Source: Acidobacteriota bacterium (lineage in GTDB: Bacteria > Acidobacteriota > Vicinamibacteria > Vicinamibacterales > UBA8438). From it: a DNA stretch of 64,000 bases. Each line of letters opens with the position of its first letter. The first letter of the stretch is position 1. Location: contig VXRJ01000004.1 in NCBI GenBank assembly GCA_009838525.1, forward strand, positions 36,190 through 100,189, written 5' to 3'. The notes under the pieces were generated by a model. The model had not been told where the DNA came from. It saw nothing but the letters and a program-made list of their open reading frames with translations, and ran no database searches. Below, in pieces: positions 18,002 to 56,100 of this stretch. Made by a program: the position numbers and the translations under genes.

Positions 18002-18071
18002 CCGGTGCGCCAGCGTCCACGCCGACCTGGATGCCGGCGCACCATGGCGTACGCGTATTAACATCTCGCGC

Positions 18072-35350: not shown

Positions 35351-37261
35351 CTACGGTGAACCAGCCGCAACCTGCCTGCGAACGGCGGCGGCGATGCGGT
35401 TGGCGGAGATCCCGTAGCGATCGAGGAGGGCGGCGGCAGGCCCGCTTCGGGGCACTTCGCGGACGGCCAGGCGTTCGACGGCGATGCCGTGAGGAGCCAC
35501 GGCTTCGCTGACGGCGTCGCCCAGGCCACCCGCGGCGTAGTGGTCCTCGACGGTGATGAGGCGGTTGCCGGTCTGCCGCGCGGCGGCGCGCAGCGTGGCG
35601 TGATCGATGGGCTGAACCGAGTAGGCGTCGATGACGCGCAGCGCGATCCCCTCCGCGGCGAGCTGCTCGTGCGCCTTGAGCGCCTCGAACAACGTGATGC
35701 CAACGGCGACCACGGTCGCAGCGTCGTTCGGCGACTCGCGCACCACCTTGGAGCCGCCGATCGGGAACGCCTCGTCCGGGCCGTAGATCACGGGCGTCGC
35801 CGGCCGCGTAGTCCGGATGTACGCCATCCCCTCGTAGCCCGCCGCCGCCTCGACGAGGCGCGCGGCACTCACCCCGTCGCACGGATACAACACGGCGCAG
35901 CCCGGCACCGCGCGCATCATCGCGAGGTCTTCCAGCGCCATCTGCGACGGGCCGTCCTCGCCGATGGACACCCCGGCGTGGGATCCCGCGAACGTGATGT
36001 TCATCCCGCCGATGCCCGCCATCCGGACGAAGTCGGCGGCGCGCGTCAGGAACGCGGCGAACGTCGACGGAAACGGGATGGCGCCGCGGCTCGCGAAGCC
36101 CATCGCCATGCCGGCCATCACCTGCTCCGCGATGTACGTCTCGTAGAAACGGTCGGCGTGCGCCGCCTCGAAGTCTTGGCTGAAGGTGGAATTGCTGACG
36201 TCGGCGTCGAGGGCTACAACCCGCGGATCGGCGGTGCCGAGCGCGGCCAGGGCAACGCCGTACGCGGCGCGCGTCGCCACCTTGTCGCCCAGCGCGTAGG
36301 AAGGAGGGGCCGGCAGCCGCGGCGGGCCATCCGGCGGCGCGGCCGAAGCGGAGGCCGCGCGGGTGGGCGGCGGCGGGATCACGGGGGCCGCTGCTCCCGC
36401 AATGCGCTGCCTCTCGAGTTCCGCGAGCGCGGCGTCGAGCGGCTCCCCCGGCGGAATCGGCTTGCCGTGCCAGCCGTCCTTGCCCTCGATGAGGACGACG
36501 CCCTTCCCTTTCAACGTGCGCGCCAGGATCATCGTCGGCCGGCCGCGAGTGCCCGCCGCTTCATCGAGCGCGTCGACGATCTGGGGCATGTCGTGGCCAT
36601 CGATGACGATCGCGCGCCAGCCGAACGCCTCCCACCGCGCCCGGTAGGCCTCCATGTCGTGGCCCCACTGCGTCGCGCGGCTCTGGCCGTAGCCGTTGAC
36701 GTCGGTGATGGCACAGAGGTTGTCGAGCCCGTAGCGTTGCGCCACCTGCGCCGCCTCCCAGACCGATCCCTCCGCCGACTCGCCGTCGCCGATCAGCGCG
36801 TAGGTGCGGTAGTCCGAACCGATCCGCCGCGCGTTCAGGGCGATGCCGATCGCGGCGCAGATCCCTTGGCCGAGCGAGCCGGTCGCGACGTCGACGAACG
36901 GCAGCCGCGGCGTCGGGTGGCCTTCCAGGTCGGAATCGATGGCCCGCAGATTGAGCAGTTCGTCCGTCGCCACGTAACCCGCTTCCGCCCAGGCGGCATA
37001 GAGGAGCGGGGCCGCGTGGCCCTTCGACAGGACGAAGCGATCGTTGTCCTCGTGTTGCGGATTGCGCGGATCGAAGCGCAGCCGGGCGAAGAAGAGCGCG
37101 GCGACGACGTCCGCGGCGGAGCAGCAGCTTGAGGGGTGCCCGCTGCCCGCCCGGCTCGTGGCGCGAATGGACGCGATGCGGAGCCGGAGGGCGACCTGTT
37201 CGAGTGCGGTGATCGTGGGCGAGTCGGACGGCACGGCTCTTTCGGCGCGAAAGTCTAGCAC
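35351..37261 (-). CDS. tkt: transketolase
   Basis: 636 aa. GSGHPSS and SKGHAAP ThDP-binding blocks, with pyrimidine-binding and C-terminal domains fused. The GTG start overlaps the upstream gene's stop by 7 nt. Confidence 0.9.
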   Translation of the reverse strand: MLDFRAERAVPSDSPTITALEQVALRLRIASIRATSRAGSGHPSSCCSAADVVAALFFARLRFDPRNPQHEDNDRFVLSKGHAAPLLYAAWAEAGYVATDELLNLRAIDSDLEGHPTPRLPFVDVATGSLGQGICAAIGIALNARRIGSDYRTYALIGDGESAEGSVWEAAQVAQRYGLDNLCAITDVNGYGQSRATQWGHDMEAYRARWEAFGWRAIVIDGHDMPQIVDALDEAAGTRGRPTMILARTLKGKGVVLIEGKDGWHGKPIPPGEPLDAALAELERQRIAGAAAPVIPPPPTRAASASAAPPDGPPRLPAPPSYALGDKVATRAAYGVALAALGTADPRVVALDADVSNSTFSQDFEAAHADRFYETYIAEQVMAGMAMGFASRGAIPFPSTFAAFLTRAADFVRMAGIGGMNITFAGSHAGVSIGEDGPSQMALEDLAMMRAVPGCAVLYPCDGVSAARLVEAAAGYEGMAYIRTTRPATPVIYGPDEAFPIGGSKVVRESPNDAATVVAVGITLFEALKAHEQLAAEGIALRVIDAYSVQPIDHATLRAAARQTGNRLITVEDHYAAGGLGDAVSEAVAPHGIAVERLAVREVPRSGPAAALLDRYGISANRIAAAVRRQVAAGSP

Positions 37262-38757
37262 GCGGGATCCGGATCGCGCGCGGTCGCCAGATCCTGCAGG
37301 GTGAGGGCGTATGCGGCGGCGGCGGGACCGTGCGACCGGGCCGCGGCGGCCTGCCCGGCGAGCGCCGAGACGGCTCGGTCACGAAACTGCGGTTGCCCGG
37401 TCAGGCGGGCAAGGCGGAGCAGGACGCGGGCGGCGTCGCAGTTGAGGGCGAAAGGGTACGCCACTACGCGGAGCAAGCCGATATCGCCATCGGCGTGGAC
37501 GCGGTCGCGGAAGCCGCCGGCCGTGTCGTCCCAGAGGTGGTGCAGGCAGAAGTGCATCAGTTCCTGCGCCATGTCGAGATAGACGTCGCGATCCGTCACC
37601 GCGAACAGATCGAGGAGGGCGGCGCTGGCCGCCACCTGATCGCCGAGCAACCCGCGAACGACGGCGGTTCCCTCCTCCCCCTCCCCGGCCCGGTGGGCAA
37701 TGCCGCCGCCGCGTTCATAGGTGCCCGCGACCACGTGCTCCAGAGCGTCAACCGCATCCGCCAGTAGCGTCTCGTCGCCCAGCACGGCGGCGGCCCGAAC
37801 CCAAGCCCGGACCATCAGGGCGGTGCAATCCGCGTATATCGCGCGATCCACCGGCGGCGGCGAAACCGTCTCTCCCGCGTAGTAGTCGGGATCCGCCCGC
37901 TGGCTCGCGAAGAAGACCGCACGACCCTGCGGACGGCCGAGCAGCGTTCGGTGAACGTAGCGGGCCAGGTGCGCGGCGCGGTCGCGGTAGTCGTCGCCGT
38001 CGCGCTCCAGCAGCAGGCGCAATACCGCCGCATTGACGCTGAGCAGTTTCTCCGTCGCGGGCTGTGTCCAGTCGGATCGTGCGCAGTAGCGGAAGACGCC
38101 GCCGTTGGCCTGGTCGTACAACCCGCCCCACCCGATGGCGCGCAGCGTGCGATCCACGACCTCCGCGAACCGCTCGTCGCCGGAGGCGGCGCGGCGCGCC
38201 GCATACTCGAGCGCCGCCGCGTACACGCGCTTCGGCGCCGCCCCGAAACCTCCGTGCTTGGCGTCGAACTGTTCGAGCAGGTGGGAGGCCACCCAACCGT
38301 CTATGGTCTGGTCGGGCGCGGCCGCCGCCACCGGCGCATCCGGCGCCGGTGCGCGCCGTCCGGCGATCGCGCCGCGCTGTGCGGCGAAAGCATCAGCCAC
38401 CTGCGGCAGGAGGCCGCGCATCCGTTCGGGCGGGACGTACGTCTCGCCACCCAGCAGATCGCCCTCCGGGCTGAGGAAGGCGGTGGTCGGCCAGCCGCTG
38501 AGGCCGTAGCGGTCGGCAATGTCGGGGCGGGCGTCGGCGTCGACGCGGATCGGGATGAAGCGATCGGCGATGAGTCCGGCGACCGCGGGATCGGCGTACG
38601 TGTCCGACGCCATCGCGGCGGTGGCGCGGCACCAAGAGGGCCCGAGCGACAGCAGGACCGGCGCACCGGCAGCGCGCGCGTCGGCGAAGGCGGAGGCGCA
38701 CCACGGACGCCACCCGACGGGGCGAGCCGCGGGACCGTCCGGCAGGGGGCGTGTCAC
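37255..38757 (-). CDS. thioredoxin-domain protein (DUF255/YyaL-like) with six-hairpin glycosidase-like C-terminal domain
   Basis: 500 aa. PVLLSLGPSWCRATAAMASDTYADPAVAGLIADRFIPIRVD resembles the DUF255 N-terminus, but the CxxC motif is degenerate (CRAT). Confidence 0.78.
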   Translation of the reverse strand: MTRPLPDGPAARPVGWRPWCASAFADARAAGAPVLLSLGPSWCRATAAMASDTYADPAVAGLIADRFIPIRVDADARPDIADRYGLSGWPTTAFLSPEGDLLGGETYVPPERMRGLLPQVADAFAAQRGAIAGRRAPAPDAPVAAAAPDQTIDGWVASHLLEQFDAKHGGFGAAPKRVYAAALEYAARRAASGDERFAEVVDRTLRAIGWGGLYDQANGGVFRYCARSDWTQPATEKLLSVNAAVLRLLLERDGDDYRDRAAHLARYVHRTLLGRPQGRAVFFASQRADPDYYAGETVSPPPVDRAIYADCTALMVRAWVRAAAVLGDETLLADAVDALEHVVAGTYERGGGIAHRAGEGEEGTAVVRGLLGDQVAASAALLDLFAVTDRDVYLDMAQELMHFCLHHLWDDTAGGFRDRVHADGDIGLLRVVAYPFALNCDAARVLLRLARLTGQPQFRDRAVSALAGQAAAARSHGPAAAAYALTLQDLATARDPDPAC

Positions 38758-38830: not shown

Positions 38831-39295
38831 CTACTCCTCGGTGATGTTGGCGGCGATGTCGAGATCGATGCAGCCCGCCACGCTGTTCGCGGCGGGGCAG
38901 CCCTTGGGGTGCTTCGCGACCGCGCGCTCGGCCGCCTCACGCATCCCGCGCGGGACGGTCAGATCGTACCGAACGCGGATCCGCGTGATGCGCAGCACAT
39001 TGTCGATCGCTTCGATGTCGCCTTCCACCTGGGCCGAAATCTTGTCGCGCGGCGCCGGAACCTTGCGCACTTCCAGTGCGCGTGCCAGGGTGCCGAGCAG
39101 TCAACCGCCGACCGACCCGACGATGTAGTCGAGCGTAGCGGGAACCTCCTCGTCGGGCTCCACGCCGTAGAACTTCTTGATGCCGCCGTGGACGCCGAAG
39201 CGGATCGGCGTGTCGAAACCCTCCAGGAACGCCTCGCGGACCGGACCCTTGACCCGCTCGATCCGCATGCGGCTGGTGTGGACAACGTCTGGCAT
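38831..39295 (-). CDS. OsmC/Ohr-family peroxiredoxin-like protein with in-frame TGA at the catalytic Cys position (candidate selenoprotein; alternatively a pseudogene)
   Basis: ATG 39295 preceded by AAGGAG-N7. Track ORFs 39101..39436 and 38831..39070 are in the same frame, separated only by TGA at 39101-39103. The joined product, ...PATLDYIVGSVGG[U]LLGTLARAL...KHPKGCPAANSV (154 aa), aligns the TGA with the first conserved Cys of OsmC (AAHAACFSMAL). The second Cys is CP. Confidence 0.55.
39055..39088 (-). promoter_or_regulatory. candidate bacterial SECIS-like hairpin downstream of the in-frame UGA
   Basis: mRNA reads UGA-N19-GCGCAC-UGGAA-GUGCGC: a 6-bp upper stem with a 5-nt loop that has G at position 2. 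A lower CUGG/CCGG stem flanks an internal loop. The apical loop starts 26 nt after the UGA. Confidence 0.35.
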
Positions 39296-39311
39296 GCCGT
39301 GGCTCCTTCTC

Positions 39312-39369
39312 TCTATGCCGGCCTGGAGGCCGGCGCACCGTCTATGCCGGCCTGGAGGCCGGCGCACCG
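39312..39369 (+). repeat. two perfect tandem 29-bp copies of the REP/RPE-like hairpin repeat
   Basis: TCTATGCCGGCCTGGAGGCCGGCGCACCG occurs twice, followed by a degenerate third copy to about 39392. It lies in the divergent gap between the OsmC-like gene and the DUF442 gene. Confidence 0.9.
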
Positions 39370-39434
39370 CCGGCGGCCCGGCGCACGAGGCCGGTGCACG
39401 CCAGCCGTGGACGCCGATGGTACAATCACCCGTC

Positions 39435-39986
39435 ATGCAGCAGTCAAGAAACTCGTTGGCGTCGGTGGCGACTTTCGCTGCGCTTCTTCTTGTCGCGGCC
39501 GGGTCCGTCGTGGCCGTGCAGGCGCAGAACTTCCTCCAGGAAGAGGGCCCCGAAGGGGTGCCGAACTACACCCGCGTGGACGCCACAGTGGCGTGCGCGG
39601 GGGCGACCGGACCGGAGGCGATGCCGGAGCTCAGCGAGCGCGGCTTCAAGACCGTCATCAACTTCCGGACCGCGGGCGAGCGGAACGCGCGGGTCGAAGC
39701 GTCGCGTGAAGCGGCCGAGGCGGCGGGACTGAACTACGTTCATCTACCCTTCCGCCAGCCGACGACCGAACTCGTCGATCAGTTCCTCGACACGGTGGCC
39801 GAGCCGGCGAACCAGCCGGTCTACATCCACTGCGGATCCGCCAACCGGGTGGGCTTCATGTGGCTCATCAAGCGGGTGAAGCAGGACGGCTATTCGTTCG
39901 AGGACGCGACGGTCGAGGCGGAAGCGATCGGCCTGCGCAGCGATGCGCTGCGGGCGTTCGCGCGCGACTACCTCGGCAGCAACTGA
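39435..39986 (+). CDS. DUF442-type putative phosphatase/sulfurtransferase-like protein (secreted)
   Basis: ATG 39435 inside ORF 39177..39986, with a signal peptide. Active-site-like IHCGSANRVG (CX4R), as in the TIGR01244/DUF442 family. Confidence 0.75.
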   Translation: MQQSRNSLASVATFAALLLVAAGSVVAVQAQNFLQEEGPEGVPNYTRVDATVACAGATGPEAMPELSERGFKTVINFRTAGERNARVEASREAAEAAGLNYVHLPFRQPTTELVDQFLDTVAEPANQPVYIHCGSANRVGFMWLIKRVKQDGYSFEDATVEAEAIGLRSDALRAFARDYLGSN

Positions 39987-40056
39987 CGCGCCTCGGACGC
40001 CACAACCGCGCTGCCTGACGGGAGGCGGCTCCGGCCGCGGCCAGTGAACTGAGAGC

Positions 40057-41520
40057 GTGTCCCGCAAACGTCTCGGCGACATGGATCCGGAGGCGTTTCG
40101 GCGCGACGGCCATGCCCTCGTCGACTGGATTGCCGCCTACCTCGACGGGACGGAACACTATCCGGTGCTGTCGCGCGCCCGTCCGGGCGACATCCGCGAC
40201 GCACTGCCCGGCCGGCCGCCCCGCGAGGGCGTCGGTTTCGATGCGATCTTCCGCGACTTCGAACGCGTAGTCGTCCCCGGCCTCACCCACTGGAACCATC
40301 CCGGCTTCTTTGCCTATTTCGCCATCTCCGGCAGCGCGCCCGGCGTTCTGGCCGAGTTTCTTTCCGCCGCCCTCAACGTCCAGGCGATGCTGTGGCGGAC
40401 GTCGCCCGCCGCGACGGAACTCGAAGAGGTGACGCTCGGCTGGCTCCGGCAACTCCTGGAGCTGCCCGACGCGTTCGAGGGCGTGATCTACGACACGGCG
40501 TCGATCTCCACGCTGCACGCCCTGGCCGCCGCCCGCCACCGGGCGGCGCCGGACACACGGACGCGCGGGATGGCGGGACGCCGCGACCTGCCGCCGCTGG
40601 TCGTGTACGCCTCCCAACAGTCGCACTCCTCCGTCGACAAGGCGGTGATGACGCTCGGGCTGGGACTGGAGGCCATCCGGAAGATCCCGGTGGACGACCA
40701 GTTCCGGATGCGGCCGGACGCGCTGGGCGAGGCGCTCGCGGCGGACCGGGCGGCCGGAGCGAGACCGATGGCGGTCGTCGCGACGGTGGGGACGACCTCG
40801 ACGACCAGCGTCGATCCGGTGGCGGCGATTGCCGATTGCCTTGGACCGAACGGGAGGGACGGGAGCACGTGGCTCCATGTCGACGCCGCCTATGCGGGCG
40901 CCGCCGCGCTCGCTCCCGGCATGCGCGGCGTGATGGACGGCTGCGGGCGGGCGGACTCCGTCGTGGTGAATCCGCACAAGTGGCTGTTTACGCCCTTCGA
41001 TCTGAGCGCCTTCTATTGCCGGCGGATGGACGACGTGCGGGCGGCGTTCTCGTTGACGCCGGAATACCTGCGGACCCCGGAAGCCGGCGCCGAAGTGCGC
41101 AACCTGATGGACACCGGCGTGCAGCTCGGCCGCCGGTTCCGCGCGCTGAAGCTCTGGGCCGTGCTGCGCTACTTCGGATCCGACGGCATCGGCGAGCGCC
41201 TCGCCGAACACCTGCGCCTGGCGCAGTGCTTCGCCGGCTGGGTGGACGAGAGCCCGAACTTCGAGCGCCTCGCGCCGGTTCCTTTCAGCGTCGTCTGCTT
41301 CCGCGCGCGGCCCGCGGGCGGCGATGCGGCCGACGCCGATCTCGACGCACTGAACGAACGTCTGCTCGACGCCGTCAACGCCACCGGCGAGGTCTTCCTC
41401 TCGCACACGAAGCTCAACGGCGCGTATGCCCTCCGCCTCGCCATCGGTCACATCCGCACGGAAGAGCGGCATGTCCGGCGGGCGTGGGAAATCCTGAACG
41501 AGCAGGCCGGGCGGTTGTAG
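40057..41520 (+). CDS. PLP-dependent aromatic-L-amino-acid/group II decarboxylase
   Basis: 487 aa. HWNHPGFFAYF and the PLP-lysine block NPHKWLFTPFD. Start is GTG 40057 or ATG 40081. Confidence 0.88.
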   Translation: MSRKRLGDMDPEAFRRDGHALVDWIAAYLDGTEHYPVLSRARPGDIRDALPGRPPREGVGFDAIFRDFERVVVPGLTHWNHPGFFAYFAISGSAPGVLAEFLSAALNVQAMLWRTSPAATELEEVTLGWLRQLLELPDAFEGVIYDTASISTLHALAAARHRAAPDTRTRGMAGRRDLPPLVVYASQQSHSSVDKAVMTLGLGLEAIRKIPVDDQFRMRPDALGEALAADRAAGARPMAVVATVGTTSTTSVDPVAAIADCLGPNGRDGSTWLHVDAAYAGAAALAPGMRGVMDGCGRADSVVVNPHKWLFTPFDLSAFYCRRMDDVRAAFSLTPEYLRTPEAGAEVRNLMDTGVQLGRRFRALKLWAVLRYFGSDGIGERLAEHLRLAQCFAGWVDESPNFERLAPVPFSVVCFRARPAGGDAADADLDALNERLLDAVNATGEVFLSHTKLNGAYALRLAIGHIRTEERHVRRAWEILNEQAGRL

Positions 41521-41524
41521 CGGG

Positions 41525-41548
41525 AGCCGACCTGGAGGTCGGCGCACC
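41525..41548 (+). repeat. REP/RPE-like hairpin repeat (compensated stem variant)
   Basis: AGCCGACCTGGAGGTCGGCGCACC, 5 nt after the decarboxylase stop and between convergent genes. The G-to-A and C-to-T changes keep the stem paired. Confidence 0.8.
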
Positions 41549-41562
41549 ACGCCCGCACGTCC

Positions 41563-54366: not shown

Positions 54367-56100
54367 CTAAGGCGAGCCCGGATTGGTCGCGGCCGGGCGT
54401 GTCGCCGCCAGGTTGGCTGCCGTGGCGGCGGTCAGAGCGCGATCAATTCTAGCGAGACAGACGTCGCGGCCGAGGATCGCCATCGCGTCGAAGAGGCCGA
54501 AGCCGACCGGCTTGCCGGTGACGCCGACCCGGACGGCGTGGATGATGGCGCCGATCCGGACGCCTTCCGATTCGACGAAACGGTGCAGGGCGGCTTCGAC
54601 GGTGGCGGCGTCGAAGGGGTCGACGTCAGCCAGCGCGGACCGGAAGCGGCCGAGCCGGCCGGCGGCGCCGGGCGCGCCGACGCGCTTGCCGAACGCCTTG
54701 GCGTCGTAGGGGAAGGCGTCGTCAGCAACGAAGAATTCGGTGTAGTTGACGATGTCGCCGGCCACCTTGAGGCGGTCGGCGGCAGCGGTGACGACGGCGC
54801 CGAGCTTGCCGGGGTCTGCGGGTGCCGGCGTGGACGCCGGCGGACCGGGTGCCGGCCTGGAGGCCGGCGGATCACCCGGCGGACCATGTGCCGGCGTGGA
54901 CGCCGGCGGACCGGCAGACGCACCGGCCTGCGCACCAAGGGCGGCGGCGAGGTAGGGGCGCACCAGCTCGACCTTCTCGTCCAGGGGCAGTCGCGCCATG
55001 CGGCGCTCCTGGAACGCCAGCAGCTTCTGCGGATCGAAGCTGGCCGCCGACTTGTTGACGCGCTCGAGCGAGAAGTTCGCAATCATCGCGTCGCGCGAGA
55101 AGTCCTCGGTGTGGTCGTCGAGCGACCAGCCGACGAGCAGCAGGTAGTTGAGGAGCGCGTCCGGGAGATAGCCGACCGACCGGTAAAACCGGACCATCAC
55201 CGGGTTGAAGGCGTCGTCGTCCGTCGTCTCGCCCAACGCCGCCATGATGCCCGCCGCGTGCTCGTACGCCTTCCGGAAGTCATCCTGCTTCAGGTACTTG
55301 CCCAGCTTCCGCTTGCTGAGCTTCTCGCTGCCGCCCGGCGCCGCCACGTACGGCACGTGCGCATAGCGCGGCAGGTCGTAGCCGAGCGACTGCATGATGA
55401 AGATCTGCCGCGGCGTGTTCGACAGGTGCTCCTCGGCCCGGATGACGTGCGTGATGTCGAAGTCGTGGTCGTCCACCGCGCTCGCCAGGTGATAGAGGGG
55501 CGTGCCGTCGGCCCGCTGAATCACGTGGTCCTGCTCCAGCGCCCAGTCGAACGCGACGGGGCCGCGCACCAGGTCGTCGAACGCGCAGGCGCCCTCGCGC
55601 GGCATCTTCAGGCGGACGACGGCCGTGCGGCCTTCCGACTCGAAGCGCGCCGCGTCGGCGTCCGTCTCCGCCATCCACCGGCGGCTGTAGATGAAGCGCT
55701 GCTTGGCCCGCTGCGCCGCCTCGCGCTCCGCCGCCGTCTCGTCCGCCGTCGCGTAGTCCCGGTAGGCGCAGCCGCACGCGAGCAGCGCGTCGACTGCGGC
55801 ACGGTGGCGATCGCCCCGCTCCGACTGGAAGTACGGCGCGCACCGACCGCCCACCTCCGGCCCCTCGTCCCAGTCGATGCCGAGCCACCGGAAACCGTCC
55901 AGGATCGGCTCCAGCGCCTCGGCGACGTTGCGCTCGCGGTCGGTGTCGTCGATCCGGAGGATGAACTGCCCGCCGTGGCGTCGCGCGAAGAGCCAGTTGA
56001 ACAGCGCCGTCCGCACCCCGCCGATGTGCAGGTAGCCGGTCGGGCTCGGTGCAAACCGCGTTCGGATCTCTACTGTGCGCCCTTCGCCTCCGCTATCCAA
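54367..56100 (-). CDS. gltX: glutamate--tRNA ligase (with Pro/Ala-rich insert)
   Basis: [14 protein letters not shown] (HIGH) and KLSKRK. 577 aa if TTG 56100 is the start; this overlaps the upstream gene by 31 nt. Contains a ~35-aa insert encoded by three hairpin-repeat copies. Confidence 0.9.
54821..54936 (+). repeat. three tandem REP/RPE-like hairpin repeat copies lying in frame inside gltX
   Basis: GTGCCGGCGTGGACGCCGGCGGACC, then GTGCCGGCCTGGAGGCCGGCGGATC, then GTGCCGGCGTGGACGCCGGCGGACC, plus a degenerate tail. Translated on the minus strand this gives [31 protein letters not shown]. Confidence 0.8.

Follow-up and report, generated by a model that had tools for sequence, protein, structure and literature searches.

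The selenoprotein locus and its reading frame

We analyzed a stretch of 64,000 nucleotides from an Acidobacteriota bacterium of the order Vicinamibacterales (assembly GCA_009838525.1, contig VXRJ01000004.1, positions 36,190 to 100,189 of the forward strand; hereafter the window). Our analysis focuses on one gene of its minus strand, a predicted selenoprotein of the OsmC fold. A preliminary description had reported two same-frame open reading frames (ORFs) parted only by the TGA at 39101-39103; this is correct, and the strand, which was left unstated, is the minus strand. There, the two ORFs make up one complete coding sequence at 38831..39295 with 154 codons, an ATG at 39295-39293, a terminal TAG at 38833-38831, and a sole in-frame TGA at codon 65. 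A Shine-Dalgarno sequence (GAAGGAG, 39303..39309, minus strand) can be read directly 7 nt 5' of the ATG; in all 19 orthologs checked for this feature, a purine-rich Shine-Dalgarno sequence at the same distance accompanies a start codon 64 codons 5' of the TGA. The GC content at third codon positions (GC3) is 0.87, as in real genes of this genome. No promoter was detected around the gene, and the sole terminator-like sites in a scan of the region are two that overlap each other on the plus strand at 39463-39481.

The joined product is, as first proposed, an OsmC-like protein of 154 residues: with the UGA read as cysteine, residues 52-147 match the Pfam OsmC domain (PF02566; E 1.7e-10, 41.6 bits against a gathering cutoff of 27.5). 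The UGA codon lies in the context DYIVGSVGG-U-LLGTLARAL, and a second cysteine, Cys133 (codon at 38897..38899, minus strand), is intact within KGCPAANSV. A HMMER alignment to solved structures, namely OsmC of Thermus thermophilus (1ukk), an OsmC-like protein of Burkholderia (4mh4) and Ohr of Pseudomonas aeruginosa (1n2f), equates position 65 with the peroxidatic cysteine of these proteins and Cys133 with their resolving cysteine; the preliminary description had likewise placed the TGA at the first conserved, catalytic cysteine and had recognized the second conserved one. We read the two ORFs as one intact gene for an antioxidant-type enzyme of the OsmC/Ohr fold, with selenocysteine (Sec, U) in place of the catalytic cysteine, and give this reading a probability of roughly 0.9; the preliminary description, too, had put the gene forward as a candidate selenoprotein.

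Conservation of the TGA and selenocysteine machinery

The distribution of the gene was examined at two taxonomic depths. A six-frame search of the genome of the window and 60 relatives (61 genomes) recovers the gene with a single in-frame TGA in 41 genomes, the own one included, at 38-99% identity; the 40 copies outside the own genome are 38-96% identical to the gene of the window. Among the TGA-bearing copies of the relatives, 39 orthologs were extracted and parsed; every one of them has the TGA at codon 65, down to 62% identity. Beyond this set, an even sample of 401 genomes from the phylum contains the family in 66 genomes and 71 places. A single TGA is present in 67 of these, the most distant at 36% identity; a further copy (G358) is full-length with cysteine, another is interrupted where its contig ends, and the remaining two show truncation or a frameshift. 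Hence, 67 of 68 intact copies carry the TGA. A sequencing error is excluded, because the codon is kept in dozens of independent genomes.

An alternative interpretation holds that the TGA is a true stop and that the locus is a pseudogene or a pair of small genes. Standard gene callers indeed split the gene, as was foreseen, into an N-terminal fragment and a C-terminal fragment of 85-89 aa. Furthermore, codon 21 of one ortholog (L091, G007:C9:469159-469614) is an additional in-frame TAG, and a frameshift or truncation affects two distant copies. Such an origin is hardly reconcilable with the orthologs, whose halves are neither separate nor decayed, a state that would have spoken against the preliminary description, and lie in one frame around the conserved TGA. 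The pairwise ratio of non-synonymous to synonymous polymorphism (pN/pS) is 0.17 on the 5' side and 0.23 on the 3' side of the TGA, and the variable columns of both halves are mostly third codon positions. Purifying selection is equally strong on both halves, which means that the region past the TGA is translated in frame. Nor is a separate start codon conserved for the second half: the leucine at +5, where the callers begin it, is encoded by CTT, CTG or TTG. Moreover, the confident single-domain fold described below requires both halves. We regard the hypothesis of a decayed or divided gene as effectively refuted. The copies in G007 and G292 and the second one in G112 may themselves be pseudogenes or assembly errors in metagenome-assembled genomes. 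The hits in G292 (L089) and the second hit in G112 (L090) seemed free of a stop across residue 65; both proved to have a truncation or frameshift close to the Sec codon and were rejected as cysteine forms.

True cysteine forms exist nonetheless, and an alignment with them, as the preliminary description had advised, places cysteine in the UGA column in L060 (AAAACLTGTL), P0005 (AITSCLLGTL) and P0036 (SVGGCLIGTL, table 11 translation); the latter two are the true cysteine forms among the database proteins. In a maximum-likelihood tree each of the three is an isolated tip with Sec forms around it. The topology needs three changes between the Sec and Cys states, at least two of which are forced by well-supported branches.

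The genome to which the window belongs (4.29 Mb in 38 contigs, 96.9% complete) contains the complete set of Sec genes named in the preliminary description. The tRNA-Sec is recognized by Rfam with 60.6 bits (cutoff 47), and ARAGORN predicts the same tRNA with anticodon UCA, the sole UCA anticodon among 53 tRNAs. The genes selA (540 bits), selB (304 bits, summed) and selD (308 bits) are present as well, and all four components exceed their curated cutoffs. Across the relatives, selA is present in 41 of the 41 TGA-bearing genomes, and the gene is missing from all four relatives in which no real selA exists (hypergeometric p ~0.009 by our own arithmetic). Among the stop codons of the genome TGA is used most often, terminating 890 of 1749 long, well-framed ORFs; it is not reassigned to sense.

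Three further selenoprotein candidates of the same genome are confirmed by Pfam. One is a molybdopterin oxidoreductase of the FdhA type with a signal for twin-arginine translocation and the TGA in the classic motif DHQARI-U-HSPTVA (C38:24216-27230, plus strand); the other two, paralogs of each other, are secreted fusions of the type AhpC/TSA-DsbD_N with the motif W-U-P-Y-C (C9:16363-17565 and C24:88707-89900, both plus strand). In each of the three, a hairpin lies 11-14 nt past the TGA. On account of these candidates the Sec system appears to be in use. The underlying scan for genes with an in-frame TGA is crude and not exhaustive: with a strict GC3 filter it missed the OsmC gene itself, and in a looser version combined with a hairpin filter it returned 185 candidates, mostly spurious, from which the three were confirmed. 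Two other candidates of the looser scan were rejected as antisense junk.

A conserved hairpin downstream of the UGA

A hairpin that resembles a bacterial selenocysteine insertion sequence (SECIS) follows the UGA at 39065..39081 on the minus strand. The stem pairs 39081-39076 with 39070-39065 and encloses the loop UGGAA at 39075-39071 (GCGCAC-UGGAA-GUGCGC), so that the stem starts 19 nt and the loop 26 nt past the UGA. The published model of the bacterial SECIS (PMC13188914, Fig. 2) demands a loop of 3-9 nt, an upper stem of 4-16 bp, a G within the first two bases of the loop, a distance of 16-37 nt from the UGA to the loop, and a minimum free energy of -7.5 kcal/mol or lower. As stated in the preliminary description, the element lies within the range of the model, and it agrees with all four published constraints, with a stem of 6-7 bp, a spacing of 25-26 nt and a free energy of -9.7 to -11.2 kcal/mol. 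The loop can be read as UGGAA or as GGA closed by a U-A pair, which fits N1-G-G-N-N2 and leaves G-G in the first loop positions.

Support for the hairpin comes from the comparison of orthologs. The loop bases U-G-G are invariant. A helix of 7 bp, which joins alignment columns 22-28 to columns 34-40 (numbering from the U of the UGA), is 97.4% paired in the 39 orthologs, and the same helix is 91.5% paired in 37 sequences that include distant subclades. In this latter set, four of the seven pairs are compensated (C-G/G-C, G-C/G-U/A-U, C-G/U-A and A-U/G-U/G-C), double changes occupy 25 cells as compared with 9.7 +/- 2.0 in shuffled alignments (reached in 0 of 500), and slid registers of the helix all collapse. 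Some of the compensations even change the amino acid, for example valine to alanine in L049. The entropy of synonymous codons at four- and sixfold degenerate sites is 0.35 bits at codons +6 to +12 versus 1.36 bits elsewhere (permutation p 5e-6), which makes this run of codons the lowest of the gene. Leucine at +9 is CTG in 39 of 39 sequences, valine at +11 is GTG in 38 of 38, and 37 of 39 encode alanine at +8 by GCA, which is rare at the other alanine sites of the gene. In the two cysteine forms for which DNA is at hand, the loops are UGACC and UGCAA, the stems are weakened, and the UGG loop is gone.

Only one part of the structure first described did not withstand the comparison. The upper stem and loop are present, covary and lie at the predicted distance, whereas the lower stem CUGG/CCGG, found in the sequence of the window, is not conserved: its helix is 80.8% paired, and 21 of 39 orthologs lack the pair 18-47. 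We have rejected this lower stem as part of the element.

The immediate flanks of the Sec codon show a bias of their own. The glycine codon before the UGA (39104-39106) is GGT in 33 of 33 orthologs with glycine at this position, while GGC dominates the genome, and the base following the UGA (codon 39098-39100) is C or A in all sequences examined. Both flanks suggest a selection of context around the Sec codon beyond the hairpin.

A UGA followed by C is a weak context for termination. It is conceivable, then, that the codon is simply read through, with a near-cognate tRNA inserting tryptophan or cysteine, or that TGA acts as a sense codon. At first sight this is also what some databases state: gene calls of the Joint Genome Institute (JGI) give tryptophan at the TGA in P0003, P0004, P0006 and P0007, which are full-length 'OsmC-like' entries with W at the active site, all from metagenome contigs shorter than 1 kb. 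For P0003 (locus L082), however, the W is a TGA read as tryptophan by the gene caller ('with_TGA=W'). A sense codon is at odds with the role of TGA as the commonest stop of the genome, with three orthologs that themselves terminate at TGA, and with a tRNA-Sec that is the only tRNA with anticodon UCA. Homologs without the TGA have cysteine at the site, never tryptophan or glycine; relatives without selA do not have the gene; and leaky read-through needs no conserved, covarying hairpin of the SECIS type. We consider decoding without Sec highly improbable. Insertion of Sec at codon 65, as far as it can be judged from the anatomy of the gene, is very likely.

Protein fold, proposed function and relation to known families

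An AlphaFold model built on the family alignment is confident, with a predicted local distance difference test (pLDDT) of 95.8 and a predicted template modeling score (pTM) of 0.88. The top 50 matches of a Foldseek search against PDB all belong to the OsmC/Ohr family, the best being Ta0195 of Thermoplasma acidophilum (2onf) with template modeling (TM) scores of 0.79/0.86. In an alignment of 48 family members, the columns D56, U/C65, G68, T69, L74, R77, G92, C133 and P134 are invariant, R20, the FGVHG motif and E95 are near-invariant, and Cys142 is not conserved. Judged by conservation, the near-invariant R20, the invariant D56 and R77, and the near-invariant E95 are candidates for the roles of the catalytic arginine and glutamate. 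The N-terminal extension (HTSRxRxERxxGPxR ... FGVHGG) is specific to the family and has no counterpart in the Pfam domain.

The alignment of U65 and Cys133 with the peroxidatic and resolving cysteines of OsmC and Ohr is the basis of the mechanism that we propose. SelB carrying Sec-tRNA(Sec) would be recruited by the hairpin within the coding sequence, and Sec rather than termination would result at UGA codon 65. In the folded protein, Sec65 is expected at the N-terminus of the long central helix, which is the peroxidatic position, and Cys133 at the resolving one. The selenolate of Sec65 would attack a hydroperoxide, and the resulting selenenic acid would react with Cys133 to a selenenylsulfide, from which a thiol reductant could regenerate the enzyme; the thioredoxin-domain protein encoded next to the gene is a candidate for this reductant, on speculative grounds. 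Peroxidase chemistry with a selenenylsulfide intermediate appears to be the most economical mechanism, and by analogy with the two-cysteine OsmC/Ohr peroxidases we consider a peroxidase activity of the selenoprotein probable, if clearly less so than its identity as a selenoprotein.

The fold does not dictate this activity, and the protein could use Sec65 and Cys133 in another thiol-selenol redox or transfer reaction, as may apply to the branches around YhfA and Ta0195. Consistent with such a role, the best structural matches, Ta0195 and AQ1549 (2egt), are both uncharacterized and rank above OsmC and Ohr; the models of the OsmC, Ohr and SACOL1771 subfamilies are far from being reached; the family-specific N-terminal extension lies outside the Pfam domain; and the conserved neighbor is a thioredoxin-domain protein without known function. 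Against it stand the two catalytic cysteine positions of OsmC/Ohr, both conserved and aligned, and the conserved residues R20, D56 and E95, which are candidates for the catalytic arginine and glutamate roles. Sec at a peroxidatic position is, moreover, typical of peroxidases such as glutathione peroxidases (GPx) and peroxiredoxins (Prx). We judge a function other than hydroperoxide reduction to be rather unlikely.

Several points weigh against our reading of the gene as a Sec-containing peroxidase. Individual copies can decay, as the extra TAG in G007 and the two truncated or frameshifted copies of the phylum sample illustrate. With regard to the hairpin, the fold of the single sequence past the UGA is no better than that of shuffled sequences (z = -0.18). 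At this GC content the measure carries no information, and the hairpin is therefore supported by comparison and not by thermodynamics. A search of all 64,000 nucleotides with Rfam at the gathering cutoffs gave no match. The conserved peptide A-R-A-L-E-V-R dictates part of the conservation of the hairpin, the relatedness of the sequences is left uncorrected in the shuffled control for the pair counts, and the cysteine forms provide only two DNAs as controls. As to function, the PDB title of Ta0195, the protein closest in structure, names no activity, and a peroxidase function would be assigned by analogy. Neither the protein of the window nor the clade members reach the curated models for the peroxidase subfamilies OsmC (TIGR03562), Ohr (TIGR03561) and SACOL1771 (TIGR03563), whose cutoffs are 85.8, 88.85 and 166 bits, respectively; the clade members score 17-27 bits with these models.

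OsmC and Ohr (T. thermophilus 1ukk and E. coli 1nye/1qwi; P. aeruginosa 1n2f and Xylella fastidiosa 1zb9) share the fold, with TM scores of 0.6-0.72, but their identity to the protein of the window is 12-21%, and the latter differs by Sec in place of cysteine and by different, longer N-terminal strands. The closest solved folds, Ta0195 (TM 0.79/0.86) and AQ1549 (TM 0.73/0.84), superpose with a root-mean-square deviation of 2.3-2.4 A at 13-14% identity; both are cysteine proteins whose PDB titles assign no function.

OsmC-like selenoproteins as such have been known since 2005, and the statement in the preliminary description that they had been reported from marine metagenomes proved right. Zhang, Fomenko and Gladyshev predicted an 'OsmC-like protein' selenoprotein (COG1765, motif UxxT, three Sec sequences) in Sargasso Sea data in 2005 (PMC1088965), the Global Ocean Sampling (GOS) survey of 2008 by Zhang and Gladyshev recovered the OsmC-like family with five Sec versus 161 Cys homologs (PMC2398784), and reviews of 2022 and 2026 list the family (PMC9312934, PMC13188914). 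The clade of the window shares with it the domain PF02566, a Sec UGA at the position of the N-terminal redox cysteine, the existence of cysteine homologs, and a bacterial SECIS hairpin with a G in a small apical loop. Yet the marine family (COG1765/YhfA), as published, has the motif UxxT and is dominated by cysteine forms, whereas the intact phylum copies of the present clade amount to 67 Sec forms and one Cys form. The motif of the clade is U-L-L-G-T, or U-L-T-G-T and U-M-L-G-T in distant members, so that threonine is found at +4 and never at +3, which does not correspond to UxxT. In addition, the clade has a family-specific N-terminal part of about 50 residues, unlike the marine family. By the published description of the marine family (representatives AACY01145085, MBR72571.1 and MCS5647933.1), the clade may be separate from it.

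The best NCBIfam match is NF041052, 'OsmC-related (seleno)protein', a model of the same superfamily that also has Sec members. The protein of the window scores 23.8 bits with this model (curated cutoff 95), and six diverse members of the clade score between 0 and 24 bits. In the 401 phylum genomes no protein reaches the cutoff, and the gene of the window is not among the matches at E <= 1e-8.

The same phylum contains a second lineage of OsmC-fold selenoproteins, which resembles YhfA (...PYEYLLAALG-x-U-T-S-M-T-L...). It is represented by the loci L085 (G097:C2:2781684-2782088), L086 (G426:C6:894535-894921), L087 (G324:C46:22700-23068) and L088 (G340:C136:24586-24960), with the TGA at the homologous position and a hairpin. 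Its identity to the family of the window is 26% over 65 residues, and it has no HTSR...FGVHGG part at the N-terminus. With NF041052 it scores 45-58 bits, higher than the family of the window and still under the cutoff. Genome G097 holds both lineages. Of the two lineages, the YhfA-like one is, by its signature, more likely to correspond to the published COG1765 family.

Cysteine forms prevail in most selenoprotein families of bacteria, so a nearly all-Sec clade is a good natural case for comparing Sec with cysteine at a peroxidatic site. For the present clade, the ratio of 67 Sec copies to one Cys copy among the intact ones, together with the occurrence of cysteine forms solely as isolated tips, would fit a Sec state that is ancestral and nearly fixed. 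We tentatively propose, as a possibility somewhat on the doubtful side, that the clade is an uncatalogued OsmC-fold lineage, apart from NF041052 and probably from the marine COG1765 type, in which Sec is ancestral and nearly fixed and whose gene, in one family of the order, makes up a conserved module of two genes with that of a thioredoxin-domain protein of the DUF255 type. If this were true, the module would detoxify peroxides by means of selenium, with the DUF255 protein as its dedicated reductant, and would be characteristic of Acidobacteriota of aerobic soils.

Public annotation and genomic neighborhood

The clade, a widespread branch among soil bacteria, is uncurated, dominated by Sec and systematically mis-annotated. 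Public protein databases hold the family mostly as fragments of 85-100 aa. Throughout the Vicinamibacterales and in numerous lineages elsewhere in the phylum, it is deposited either split in two or with the TGA mis-read as tryptophan, and no curated model covers the clade. For these two reasons, counts of the selenoproteome of soil Acidobacteriota are too low. The known principles of Sec decoding are unchanged by our results. Since the compact, covarying SECIS element lies in frame and constrains the peptide A-R-A-L-E-V-R, the gene is also a clean example of overlapping constraints on RNA and protein.

Directly downstream of the selenoprotein gene and on the same strand (37255..38757, minus) lies the gene of the thioredoxin-domain protein, which combines a Thioredox_DsbH/DUF255 domain (PF03190, E 2.5e-25) with a region similar to GlcNAc-2-epimerase. 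Sixteen of the 19 family loci share this arrangement, with a neighbor that is 46-100% identical; beside the distant cysteine form P0036 the neighbor is not conserved. The DUF255 protein is a possible functional partner of the selenoprotein, and its service as a reductant is a speculative extension of the conserved gene order.

On the other side, two real genes point away from the selenoprotein gene on the plus strand; they encode a protein similar to DSP-PTPase/BLH phosphatases (39177-39986) and a decarboxylase dependent on pyridoxal phosphate (40057-41520). Two minus-strand ORFs in the same region (39444-40082 and 39868-41550) were rejected as neighbors, given that they have no Pfam match and an antisense GC pattern: the long minus-strand ORFs within 39444-41550 (99, 112 and 560 aa) have a GC content of 0.83-0.86 at first codon positions (GC1) and a GC3 of ~0.70.

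The 5' region of the selenoprotein gene also contains a dispersed hairpin repeat similar to repetitive extragenic palindromic (REP) elements, GCCGGCC-TGGA-GGCCGGC-GCACC, in two perfect tandem copies of 29 nt at 39312-39372. Elsewhere in the window it recurs at 18021, 26382, 31571, 41526, 45819, 54824-54912, 58880 and 59668. The 4.29-Mb genome has 172 copies with up to three mismatches, and some of their stems are compensated, for example GCCGACC...GGTCGGC.

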